Source: Patescibacteria group bacterium
GTDB taxonomy: Bacteria > Patescibacteriota > Minisyncoccia > Phycocordibacterales > Phycocordibacteraceae
DNA: 64,000 nucleotides
Direction of reading: 5' to 3'
Assembly: GCA_019752595.1 (NCBI GenBank)
Contig: JAIELV010000001.1
Coordinates: forward strand, 726,240-790,239
The position numbers and the translations under genes were made by a program. Below are positions 12,248 through 15,200 of this stretch, piece by piece. The notes under the pieces were generated by a model. That model worked only from the letters and a program-made list of their open reading frames with translations. It ran no database searches and had not been told where the DNA came from. Numbering within the stretch: position 1 is the first letter of the stretch; every line of letters starts with the position of its first letter.

Positions 12248-15200
12248 ATGGCAGATGCGGATAAAAGCGACGTAGCAAAGCGGGAGGAGGCAATCCTCGC
12301 TTTCTGGAAGGAGAACAAAGTCTTTGAAAAGACTTTGGCGAAAGATGCTCCGAAAGGTGAATTTGTCTTCTATGACGGTCCGCCATTTGCTACAGGCACT
12401 CCGCATTCGGGCTCTCTGTTGTCATCAGTCTCGAAAGACGTGATACCCCGCTATAAAACGATGCGGGGTTTTCGCGTGCGCCGTCGATGGGGGTGGGACA
12501 CGCACGGACTTCCAATTGAATCGTTGGTTGAGAAGAAACTCGGGCTCAAGAACAAAAAAGAAATTTTGGCTGTCGGTATCGAGACATTCAACGAAACCGC
12601 GCGCGCGATGGTTCTTGAGTACGTGCACGAGTGGAAGCGATATGTGGAGCGCGTAGGACGCTGGGTAGATTTCGACAATTCTTACAAGACGATGGACAAC
12701 ACATTTATCGAGTCTGTCTGGTGGGGGTTGAAAAAAATTCACGAGAAAGGAAATTTGTACGAAGGAAGAAAAGTGTTGATGTACTGTCCGCACTGCGAAA
12801 CGCCCTTGGCGAAAGCTGAAATCGCGATGGACAATACCTACAAGGACGTCACTGAGGAAGCGGTGACGGTAAAATTCAAAGTTAAACATCCCGAGAAACA
12901 TTCGCTTCCTGAAAATACTTTTATTCTCGCGTGGACCACAACGCCGTGGACCTTGCCAGGGAACGTTGCGCTTGCCGTTGGCCCAGAAATTATTTATTCA
13001 GTGGTACGTGTCGGAGATGAGAACCTAATTTTGGCTAATGAGCGTCTGTCCGTTCTCAAAGATGCGCCACAGAATATTCTTAAAGAAGTGCAAGGCAAAG
13101 AAATTGTCGGAATTGAATACGAACCCTTGTACGAAATAGGGAAAGTAAAAACACACGCGAGCGAGAAAAAATGGACCGTGCTCGCGGCGGAATTTGTTAC
13201 CACGACGGACGGTACAGGCGTAGTACACACAGCGGTCATTTACGGCGAAGACGACTACCAACTGGGGCTCAAAGAAGGTCTGCCGATGATTCCTATTTTG
13301 AATCCGAACGGCACCTATAACACAGATGCGCCAGAATTTCTGCACGGTCAGTACATCAAGAAAGCAGAGGCAGTCATTAAGGCCGATTTGGAGTCGCGCG
13401 GCCTTCTGTTTGCGAAGGAGAGTAATACGCACAGCTACCCGCACTGTTATCGGTGCGGTACAGCGCTCATATATAACGCCGTTTCAAGCTGGTTCATCAA
13501 TATTCAGAACGTAAAAGAAAAAATGCTCTCGGAGAATGAGAAGATTACGTGGTTTCCTGAGCACCTAAAACACGGGCGTTTCAAAAAAATAATAGAAACA
13601 GCTCCTGACTGGACCATTTCTCGAAACCGTTTTTGGGCATCACCGCTTCCGATTTGGAAGGACCCTGCTGGGAATGTAACGGTTGTTGGTTCGTTGGATG
13701 AGCTGAAGGCGCGGACGAAAAAATCAGGGAACAAATATTTTGTGATGCGTCACGGAGAATCGGAGAAAAACGTTCTCAACATTACAGACAACGACATCTC
13801 AAAACCATATGCTCTGACGGAAAAGGGCAAGGAGGAGGTGAAAGCGTCAGCGGGAACTTTGCAAGACAAGGGAATTGATCTCATTATTGCGTCTCCCTAC
13901 CTTCGGACGAGAGAGACTGCTGAAATTACCGCAGAGGCCTTAGGTATTTCTAAGGATGCAATCGTACTCATGGACCAGCTTGTGGAATTGAACCATGGGG
14001 CTCAGGAAGGTGGGACACCGTCAGAATATAGCGATTTGTATCGAAACACCTTTGAGGGGTTTTGTACTGCGCCTGAAGGTGGAGAAACGTTTGCAGAGCT
14101 AAAGCGACGGGTGGGGGAAGCTCTCTATGCTATTGAGCAAAAATATCAGGGTAAAAATATTTTGATTGTCTCTCACGGTGACCCAATAGCTGCACTTCTT
14201 CTAGCTGCCCGAGGGGCAACGCTAGAAGAATCGTTTAATTTGTATCGGCAGATATATCCCAAAAAAGGACAAGCCATTGCGTTTGATTTTGTACCGCTCC
14301 CTCATAACAAAAATTACGAGCTTGATTTTCACTTGCCGTACATTGACGGTATTCAGCTTGAAAACGAAAAAGGGGAAAGTCTGAAGCGCATTCCTGAGGT
14401 TGTGGACTGTTGGGTGGAGTCAGGGGCAATGCCGTTTGCGGAATACCACTACCCATTTGAAAACAAGGGTGAATTTGAGAAACGCGCCCCAGGAGATTTC
14501 GTATCTGAATACATCGGACAAACGCGCGCGTGGTTCTACTACATGCATGCAGTTTCGGTGCAGCTATTTGGCAGAGCATCATTTAGAAATGTGGTGACGA
14601 CAGGCACTATTCTTGCAAAAGATGGAGAAAAACTTTCAAAGTCGAAGAAAAATTACACCGACCCGTATGTAATTTTCGATACGTATGGCGCGGACGCGTT
14701 CCGCTACTACCTCATGTCGTCAGTTGTCATGCAGGCAGAAGATTTGCAGTTTAAGGATGATGAGATAAAAGAAGTGCAGAATCGTTTGCTGAATATTCTG
14801 AGAAATACGCATGCATTTTATGAACTCTATAAAGACGAAGTGGAGGAGCCCGATTCGAAAAGCCAGCACGTGTTGGACCGATGGATAGTACTTCGCCTTG
14901 AAGAGCTCACCACTCAGATGACGGAAGCGTTTGATCGCTATGACGCAATCCGTGCGGCGCGCCCCGTACGCGAATTCGTGGAGGACTTTTCGACGTGGTA
15001 CCTGCGTCGCTCGCGTGATCGCATGAAAGGGGATGATGTGGAAGATAAGAAGCGCGCTCTTTCAACTATGCGGTATGTGTTTCTGACACTCTCAAAGCTG
15101 GTTGCGCCCATCATGCCGTTTATTGCGGAGGAGATTTACCAAAGTGTAAAGACCGAGGACGACCCTGAAAGCGTGCATGTATCTATGTGGCCACTTCAAG

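Follow-up and report, generated by a model that had tools for sequence, protein, structure and literature searches.

A branch-1 histidine phosphatase nested in the CP3 loop of a type-2 isoleucyl-tRNA synthetase of Patescibacteria

Introduction

Isoleucyl-tRNA synthetase (IleRS) structures have been solved for Thermus thermophilus (1ILE) and, as IleRS2, for Priestia megaterium (8C8U); both enzymes have a CP1 editing domain, a CP2/CP3 layout, a KMSKS signature, and a DUF5915 C-terminal domain. CP3 is the segment between the CP2–CP3 linker and the second half of the Rossmann fold (residues 459–526 in yeast and 473–534 in Candida); its topology varies among IleRSs, and in T. thermophilus it binds zinc (PMC7191050). 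The yeast CP2–CP3 linker, ARDWNVSRNRYWG, helps to form the pocket that takes the tRNA 3′ end and reveromycin A (PMC7955072). Mupirocin hyper-resistance has been connected with changes in the HIGH motif of IleRS2 (PMC10485003). Here we describe an ileS gene in a 64,000-nt stretch of DNA (the window) from a Patescibacteria group bacterium (assembly GCA_019752595.1, contig JAIELV010000001.1, positions 726,240 to 790,239 of the forward strand). Its product shares the CP1, CP2/CP3, KMSKS, and DUF5915 elements with 1ILE and 8C8U and is homologous to them over their full length outside an insert. It differs from them in that a phosphatase stands in the CP3 loop, the zinc-knuckle Cys residues of CP3 are absent, and the HIGH signature reads HSGS.

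A synthetase with an accessory catalytic domain is a known kind of protein. The curated model NF040702 (ileS_w_GNAT) is a precedent for an IleRS with an extra enzymatic domain, and we found no published description of the GNAT-bearing enzyme; some relatives of the window protein carry both the phosphatase and a GNAT domain, whereas the window protein has no acetyltransferase match in Pfam and scores 332.9 against the NF040702 cutoff of 1999. The Rv2228c-type RNase H/acid phosphatases (NF005567) likewise join a CobC-like histidine phosphatase to a nucleic-acid enzyme, but they are end-to-end fusions with a different partner, whereas the phosphatase of the window protein is nested. PhoE (1H2E), CobC (6E4B), PspA (4IJ5), and Rv2419c resemble the insert in fold (template modelling score about 0.7–0.78), in their R-H…R…E…H catalytic set, and in size (~195 aa); unlike these enzymes, with which it shares 17–26% identity, the insert is nested inside, or encoded beside, another enzyme. 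A P-loop kinase is joined to a phosphatase in T4 Pnkp and bacterial Pnkp1 (4XRP), as it is in the relatives P0391, P0406, and P0412, and the proposed parallel is the task of making tRNA ends usable. The phosphatase modules of Pnkp have HAD or metallophosphoesterase folds. The likeness to Pnkp is weak. Pfam found no kinase domain in the window IleRS, only some relatives having one, and by this test the window IleRS falls outside the Pnkp-type end-healing enzymes.

Our literature search for IleRSs or other aminoacyl-tRNA synthetases fused to a histidine phosphatase or phosphoglycerate mutase, in Patescibacteria or the candidate phyla radiation (CPR), returned no description, and a 2026 survey of IleRS domain evolution makes no mention of a phosphatase insertion. 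The nested-phosphatase variant is apparently undescribed, as had been supposed in an earlier note on this DNA written from the sequence alone, though fused proteins are abundant in databases as ‘IleRS’ or ‘class I tRNA ligase family protein’. In JGI, one product name enumerates the three domains, and for one relative the JGI pipeline calls the domain ‘phosphohistidine phosphatase SixA’.

Results

The earlier note had placed a histidine phosphatase domain inside the 1163-aa ileS open reading frame (ORF), at 13720–14340. Pfam and NCBIfam scores, the alignment with 1ILE, and AlphaFold models bear out this reading, and the alignment sets the limits at 13724–14320. The hidden Markov model of His_Phos_1 (PF00300), suggested in the note as a check, matched aa 498–663 (E = 6.7e-32; 111.2 bits against a gathering threshold of 21.7). 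In the 1ILE alignment, residues 8–492 of the window protein correspond to T. thermophilus residues 9–482 and residues 692–983 to 488–788; that is, ~199 aa (493–691) stand in place of the 5-residue CP3 loop (residues 483–487) of the T. thermophilus enzyme. The note had also read the locus as a domain insertion in a continuous frame and not as two genes, which agrees with the single ORF and with the recurrence of the arrangement in hundreds of assemblies. The guanine-plus-cytosine (GC) content is even through the insert, without a break. The motifs quoted in the note, FVMRHGESEKN, ILIVSHGDPI, WASPLPIW, and KLSKSKKNY, are all present. The features of the gene, all on the plus strand, are as follows.

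12248..15739, plus strand: ileS, type-2 IleRS with the nested phosphatase, a single uninterrupted ORF of 1163 aa
12401..12415, plus strand: HIGH-signature region, read from the sequence as P-H-S-G-S (aa 52–56; HSGS, aa 53–56), the fourth residue changed from His to Ser
12839..13444, plus strand: CP1 editing domain (about aa 198–399), matching the editing-domain structures 1WK8 and 1WNY (E = 5.9e-37)
13601..13657, plus strand: CP2–CP3 linker APDWTISRNRFWASPLPIW (aa 452–470), invariant in 120 of 120 aligned sequences
13658..13723, plus strand: N-terminal part of CP3, a β-hairpin and helix (aa 471–492) without zinc-knuckle Cys, from the AlphaFold secondary structure
13724..14320, plus strand: nested branch-1 histidine phosphatase (aa 493–691), from PF00300, fold models, and Foldseek
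14321..14425, plus strand: C-terminal part of CP3 and re-entry into the Rossmann fold (LDFHLPYID to EVVDCWVESG, aa 692–726), the 1ILE alignment resuming at residue 692
14630..14644, plus strand: KMSKS signature, read from the sequence as KLSKS (aa 795–799)
14876..15346, plus strand: anticodon-binding helical domain (aa 877–1033), PF08264, E = 2.8e-29

The host protein is a type-2 IleRS. It scored 814.8 bits against the NCBIfam ileS model TIGR00392 (cutoff 621.4), the match falling in two stretches around the insert, and Pfam assigned to the ORF tRNA-synt_1 in two parts, His_Phos_1, Anticodon_1 (877–1033), and DUF5915. Its best solved-structure matches were 1ILE (E = 2.7e-202) and IleRS2 8C8U (E = 1e-195); DUF5915 is present, and 1ILE, 8C8U, and the yeast and Candida IleRSs ranked above the type-1 enzyme 1FFY. 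The class I features called normal in the earlier note were found for the editing insertion, with the motifs WTTTPWTLPGN and GTGVVHTA of a CP1 editing domain, and for KMSKS in its KLSKS form, which also occurs in 76 close relatives; the HIGH signature is degenerate. This degeneracy is clade-wide, HSGS or HQGS standing at the HIGH site in 96 of 118 close relatives, whereas distant fused IleRSs keep HYGH.

The phosphatase is nested within CP3, with the hairpin and first helix before it (strands at residues 469–471 and 477–479 and a helix at 483–489 in the AlphaFold secondary structure) and the conserved LD-H-PYID segment after it. The note had described this site as the short linker between the zinc knuckle after WGxPIP and DVWFDSG; the site was right, but the window protein has no zinc-knuckle Cys there, while relatives do. 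In the window’s clade, the Cys residues are lost in 68 of 95 fused genes and kept in 26, and we therefore rejected the idea that the phosphatase substitutes for the CP3 zinc knuckle. The AlphaFold2 model of the whole protein, a prediction that the note had advised, had a predicted local distance difference test (pLDDT) value of 82.8 and a predicted template modelling (pTM) score of 0.72, with values of ~88–96 in blocks of the insert and ~90 at both junctions. Modelled alone, the insert gave a pLDDT of 94.3 and a pTM of 0.91, in keeping with an autonomously folding domain. The residues at the junctions (SGN-Y ahead of the insert and F-PLPHN--YELD-H-PYID behind it) are near-invariant in the 120-sequence alignment, which suggests that the phosphatase is attached in a fixed rather than a floppy manner.

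Conservation was assessed in this same alignment, which comprises 119 relatives and the query. The predicted catalytic residues are as follows.

13748..13756, plus strand: RHG motif, R501, H502 (predicted phospho-accepting nucleophile), and G503; R and H invariant in all 120 sequences, G kept in 118
13904..13906, plus strand: R553, second phosphate-binding arginine, in 120 of 120
13985..13987, plus strand: E580, predicted general acid/base, Glu in 115 and Asp in 5 of the 120
14174..14176, plus strand: H643 of the SHG motif, second catalytic histidine, in 120 of 120

R501, H502, R553, E580, and H643, the catalytic core of branch 1, are thus all present; the loss of catalytic His or Arg residues that the note had named as a possible objection did not appear, and R621 is invariant as well. 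Among 148 distant cluster representatives, essentially all complete copies retain the R/H/R/E/H core, extra copies included. The ratio of nonsynonymous to synonymous substitution rates (dN/dS; Nei–Gojobori, close unsaturated pairs) was 0.03–0.2 for the insert and 0.03–0.11 for the IleRS core; at larger divergence, the insert evolves faster than the core. Together, these patterns indicate a second, intact active site attached to IleRS and maintained by selection, and the insert is apparently an active, catalytically competent phosphatase. One homolog (L080:4630-7917, Zambryskibacteria RIFCSPHIGHO2_01_FULL_46_25) lacks ~35 aa of the helical cap through an internal deletion, the GGES motif among them, and keeps the R/H/R/E/H core.

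Foldseek returned 312 PDB matches to the insert at E ≤ 0.001, and the best 50 listed were all branch-1 histidine phosphatases, which places the insert in the PGAM-type α/β fold. The top matches were PspA, the riboflavin-pathway HFP, PhoE, CobC, Rv2419c, and cofactor-dependent phosphoglycerate mutases (dPGMs), at 17–26% identity and E of ~1e-13; the PspA structure 4IJ5 was the best solved match in both sequence and fold. The insert has a helical cap, a trait typical of small-molecule enzymes. It stayed below the curated cutoffs of dPGM (TIGR01258; 26.1 bits against 81.7), dPGM_arch (NF038349; 77.1 against 225), CobC α-ribazole phosphatase (TIGR03162; 73.8 against 162.9), PspA phosphoserine phosphatase (NF045917; 62.9 against 350), SixA (TIGR00249; 36.8 against 74.5, over the N-terminal ~70 residues only), and GpmB (53 against 261). 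The best-scoring specific NCBIfam model, that of the RNase H/acid phosphatase (NF005567), gave 93.2 bits against 326. Identification of the insert as a dPGM, CobC, PspA, or SixA was accordingly rejected. The insert carries the sequence E-L-N-H-G-A-Q-E-G, an E-x-x-x-G-x-x-E-G motif of the PhoE/CobC type, and SHGD. The motifs of dPGMs are ERHYG and HGN, and the insert shows other forms. Because it lies under the curated cutoff of every specific NCBIfam family, we regard the insert as a family of its own within the small, capped PhoE/CobC/PspA type.

The earlier note had asked for a comparison with related Patescibacteria, and this showed the insertion to be old. PF00133 and PF00300 occur together in all 120 of the best database relatives (drawn from NCBI, JGI, ENA, and Logan; 61–87% identity), on contigs of up to 766 kb. 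When one genome was scanned for each GTDB species, at least 503 species genomes proved to encode a relative, and all of the 80 loci kept span flank, insert, and flank; their names include Kaiserbacteria, Campbellbacteria, Nomurabacteria, Zambryskibacteria, and Paceibacterota, among them Parcubacteria genomes labelled GW2011. Taxon names are those of the depositors, and many ‘uncultured Candidatus Saccharibacteria’ labels are probably generic. Among 1.84 billion representatives of 50%-identity clusters, 242 proteins matched at E ≤ 1e-30, and nearly all of the best 150 of these matched a 321-aa flank–insert–flank query in one stretch at 35–59% identity. Judged by these comparisons, the fused architecture is ancient and real and common to hundreds of Patescibacteria species.

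The genes flanking ileS in the window are conserved neighbors.

8402..10135, plus strand: argS, conserved upstream neighbor (Pfam Arg_tRNA_synt_N, tRNA-synt_1d, DALR_1)
15690..16313, plus strand: recO, conserved downstream neighbor (RecO_N, 31.7 bits against a cutoff of 27)

In several relatives, the phosphatase is a separate gene beside an insert-less ileS. In L081/L082, 133 nt separate a phosphatase of 197 aa (42% identity with the insert) from the 968-aa insert-less ileS downstream of it, which recO follows; L084 has two phosphatase genes in tandem ahead of a 989-aa insert-less ileS; and in L089/L090, the order is argS, phosphatase, insert-less ileS (921 aa), one small gene, and recO, with gaps of 2 and 12 nt. 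Stand-alone phosphatases also lie upstream of an ileS that itself has the insert (L086/L087 and L017). A metagenome scan seeded with the stand-alone phosphatases yielded 80 loci, of which the best ~55 were argS–phosphatase–ileS operons (at least 14 directly adjacent) or ileS genes with internal copies; no ileS was found near the 24 weakest loci, which encode unrelated His_Phos_1 proteins. The phosphatase–ileS pair is conserved where IleRS identity has fallen to 34–48%. These gene orders show the insert to derive from a gene that is otherwise the immediate operon neighbor of ileS. The products of such conserved gene pairs commonly interact, and the stand-alone phosphatase probably works in a complex with IleRS.

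Insertion has occurred repeatedly and at more than one site. As assigned by sequence landmarks, site A, used in the window, lies in CP3 between WGxPxP and DxWxxSG; site B is bounded by DxWxxSG and the (A/G)EGxDQxRGW strand; and site C follows KMSKS, ahead of the anticodon-binding domain. Site A′ is a variant CP3 position after the second zinc knuckle, found in P0271, the same protein occurring on two independent contigs. Among the 148 representatives, 139 have one copy, eight have two, and one has four. Among the relatives found with P0293, which are Gracilibacteria, Peregrinibacteria, and Peribacteria, use of site C alone is commonest (45), followed by site A (38) and B or B+C (~16); A+C, A+B+C, and A+B architectures also occur. 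No N- or C-terminal fusion of the phosphatase to IleRS was present among the ~390 proteins examined. Extra copies are only 34–41% identical to any other copy, which marks them as old; a reading of tandem copies as assembly repeats was rejected on the same ground, copies within one protein being ~34–41% identical. P0271 (L172:1711-4974 and L173:1570-4833) carries phosphatase copies at three positions, and its ORF ends at 1087 aa, so that the third copy breaks off just past its RHGE motif and the anticodon-binding domain is not reached; this may be a split gene or a true truncation. The P0293 contig (L171) encodes an IleRS with phosphatases at B and C and none at A; the neighbors of this gene, DAHP synthase, adenylosuccinate synthase, and an SLH-domain protein, are unusual content for a CPR genome.

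The phosphatase can be replaced and is not exclusive to IleRS. In P0390 (1504 aa; JGI), aa 566–1100 at site B hold two tandem capped HAD-family phosphatases (nucleophile motifs DFDGV and DNDGV) and no His_Phos_1, a non-homologous replacement of the histidine phosphatase. A valyl-tRNA synthetase (ValRS) of 1337 aa (L176:17319-21332, on contig CAZHIF010000005.1 of GCA_964532505.1; 878.7 bits against a cutoff of 704) has His_Phos_1 at aa 511–663, at the CP3-equivalent site directly after the WGHQIPVW hairpin, and then ~210 further residues before the DTWFSS motif; the IleRS of the same contig (L176:10001-13204) has no insert. An exclusive association with IleRS is ruled out by this ValRS, by an ArgS–phosphatase fusion (L097), and by an insert-less ileS that stands alone (L174). 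The ArgS fusion (L097:3375-5561) is a 729-aa protein encoded directly upstream of ileS, in which the ArgS C terminus (…GISSPQQM) reads without a stop into the phosphatase (KRIELNNKYYIMRHG…); it is known from a single contig, and a sequencing error is possible.

IleRSs of the Gracilibacteria and Peregrinibacteria type (1200–1860 aa) gather further in-frame domains. The proteins with extra modules (P0391, P0406, P0412, P0411, P0287, P0329, P0223, P0342, and P0380) carry GNAT, P-loop kinases (AAA_33/AAA_18, one of them Zeta-toxin-like), DUF559, and an α/β hydrolase, and an IS200-type Y1 transposase domain that lies inside the CP1 editing domain. The best solved match to the kinase-module profile was Pnkp1 (4XRP; E = 1.1e-6), barely above generic small-molecule kinases, and with so marginal a top match a Pnkp-like nature of the co-inserted kinase was kept as a lead only. 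The GNAT module gave only generic RimI-like matches. PADLOC returned no match for anti-phage defence, and a known anti-phage defence system was rejected on this basis.

Discussion

We consider it probable, with appreciable room for doubt, that the window gene encodes a bifunctional protein: a housekeeping type-2 IleRS with a competent phosphatase, derived from a partner gene of ileS, whose activity is held near aminoacylation. A separate phosphatase ORF between argS and ileS would have been internalized into surface loops of the second catalytic half, and selection would maintain a phosphatase activity kept close to the aminoacylation machinery.

As to the reaction, our preferred mechanism is a tentative one. 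H502 would attack a terminal phosphomonoester on the tRNA acceptor end before isoleucylation; the target may be a 3′/2′-phosphate or pyrophosphate on A76, left by nucleases or toxins, and its removal would restore a chargeable 3′ end just before isoleucylation. A tRNA-end phosphate is favored because the insertion point adjoins the 3′-end pocket, because kinase and phosphatase combinations occur in relatives, because the stand-alone copies are more basic, and because 3′-end (pyro)phosphorylation of tRNA is known to block charging. The net charge per 100 aa was +8.5 for stand-alone copies, +2.8 for fused copies, and, at equal GC, +3.6 for a background of unverified ORFs, as if a free phosphatase must find an acidic partner that the fused form is handed. 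Second in likelihood comes a nucleotide, or some other small phosphomonoester, that the synthetic site makes or binds.

Several points weigh against a bifunctional enzyme of this kind. The window’s own insert is acidic (isoelectric point 5.3). Its fold neighbors are all small-molecule phosphatases at 17–26% identity, the HAD replacement is of the capped, small-molecule type, and the likeness of the kinase module to Pnkp1 is weak, barely ahead of generic kinases. To our knowledge, no RNA-end phosphatase of the PGAM fold is known, and no reason is evident why IleRS, and sometimes ValRS, should need end-healing above other synthetases. In at least one relative (L174), an insert-less ileS has no phosphatase neighbor. 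CP3 is structurally variable (PMC7191050), and its tolerance of insertions may explain part of the pattern.

A wider proposal, which we regard as speculative and slightly less probable than the mechanism itself, is that patescibacterial class Ia synthetases (IleRS and sometimes ValRS) serve as platforms for substrate-repair or counter-defence enzymes of their own, so that tRNA is healed at the charging enzyme. The phosphatase would remove a block left by ribotoxins or by toxSAS/CapRel-type tRNA pyrophosphokinases, and in some lineages a Pnkp-like kinase and a GNAT would join it. If true, the phosphatase would found a new functional class among the accessory domains of synthetases, and no RNA-end phosphatase with the PGAM fold would precede it.

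The main rival is that the insert is a metabolic phosphatase or mutase, for example a missing phosphoglycerate mutase (PGM), that hitch-hikes with ileS, being co-expressed with it and nested in a permissive loop of this downstream neighbor, and has no mechanistic link to aminoacylation; we hold this to be possible, although unlikely. PGM is reported absent in several shallow Parcubacteria clades, being ‘possibly too divergent’ for the threshold of the hidden Markov model (Jaffe et al. 2020; PMC7304191). An adjacent upstream gene also offers a simple route for local recombination, CP3 is variable and insertion-tolerant, and the accumulation of GNAT, kinase, DUF559, and Y1 transposase domains suggests a permissive scaffold. 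The fold neighbors, dPGMs included, and the capped HAD replacement are small-molecule types, as this rival would have it, but the insert fails the curated dPGM models (26.1 of 81.7 bits and 77.1 of 225), and its PhoE/CobC-type and SHGD motifs are unlike the ERHYG and HGN of dPGMs. Read-through from the upstream gene, the simplest route, predicts N-terminal fusions, whereas none was seen among the ~390 proteins and the several sites used are internal ones that surround the catalytic core. Up to four diverged copies with kept catalytic residues, and a non-homologous phosphatase at the same site, are hard to square with neutral capture, and the gene pair persists where IleRS identity is 34–48%.

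Less likely, and in our view improbable, is a regulatory protein phosphatase that removes an inhibitory phosphate from IleRS (for instance from a Ser of the KMSKS loop) or from a partner, possibly as a built-in antidote or switch against HipA/HipT-type toxin kinases, which target GltX and TrpS. All insertion sites flank the KMSKS region in sequence, SixA, PGAM5, and Sts of branch 1 act on proteins, the JGI pipeline labels the domain SixA in one relative, and the P-loop kinases (one Zeta-toxin-like) and GNATs of relatives could form modification and reversal pairs. Against this stand the SixA score of 36.8 under a cutoff of 74.5, the helical cap typical of small-molecule enzymes, the fact that no HipA-like kinase was seen in the window or the loci, and the empty PADLOC result; we know of no case of IleRS phosphorylation.

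That the insert is an inactive structural module, which stabilizes or replaces the CP3 zinc knuckle or adds a binding surface, is very improbable, and the earlier note’s suggestion to this effect is disfavored by the invariance of the catalytic residues across hundreds of sequences and extra copies. The loss of zinc-knuckle Cys in 68 of 95 fused genes of the clade would fit such a role, but 26 fused genes keep the knuckle; the cap deletion tolerated in L080 would fit it too, but that protein retains its R/H/R/E/H core; and the faster evolution of the insert at larger divergence must be set against the substitution of a non-homologous phosphatase at the same site and the existence of stand-alone orthologues. 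A wrong joining of two genes by assembly or annotation can be dismissed, since the identical junction and architecture recur in hundreds of independent NCBI, JGI, ENA, and Logan assemblies, excluding the misassembly that the note had thought worth checking, the frame is continuous with even GC content, and, were the flanking halves not joined, IleRS would be cut through its Rossmann fold, while the seemingly stand-alone database entries P0124 and P0132, which might have spoken for an artefact, are fragments of the fused gene on frameshifted long-read contigs, the true stand-alone phosphatases being P0126, P0133, P0144, and P0148.

Extra catalytic domains inside the active-site fold of a synthetase are rare, though synthetases are among the best-studied enzymes. 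Here, over much of the Patescibacteria, the catalytic half of an essential synthetase has gained a second, intact active site, repeatedly, in several places, and in one case by way of a non-homologous phosphatase. This pattern would imply an unrecognized phosphate-removing step coupled to isoleucine (and valine) charging in minimal genomes, which may be tRNA-end repair, product removal, or regulation. Generic labels hide the phosphatase from metabolic reconstructions, one of which reports PGM to be missing in some Parcubacteria.

Genomic surroundings

The 2.1-kb spacer between argS and ileS in the window (10136–12247), which is the place of the phosphatase gene in unfused relatives, contains only small ORFs without significant Pfam matches. 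Two of them (11288–11524 and 11661–11927) carry Cys pairs, and a 174-aa ORF on the minus strand has a sub-threshold DnaA_C-like match. A decayed phosphatase or an RNA gene in the spacer was rejected, as there is no His_Phos elsewhere in the window, no Rfam match, and no tRNA; none of the 64 kb of the window yielded a tRNA gene. The window holds a cluster of synthetase genes at 8402–22231, namely argS (8402), ileS (12248), a class II synthetase with an HGTP anticodon domain (18237–19634), and metG (20768–22231), and the synthetases other than IleRS have no extra domain. The recO ORF begins with TTG at 15690 and shares its first 50 nt with the end of ileS, and its true start may be downstream; the order ileS then recO is also found in L081, L088, and L089. 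In L088 (937–3022, a long-read contig), a TnpB-like (HTH_OrfB_IS605) gene and cas1 lie between argS and a fused ileS fragmented by frameshifts.

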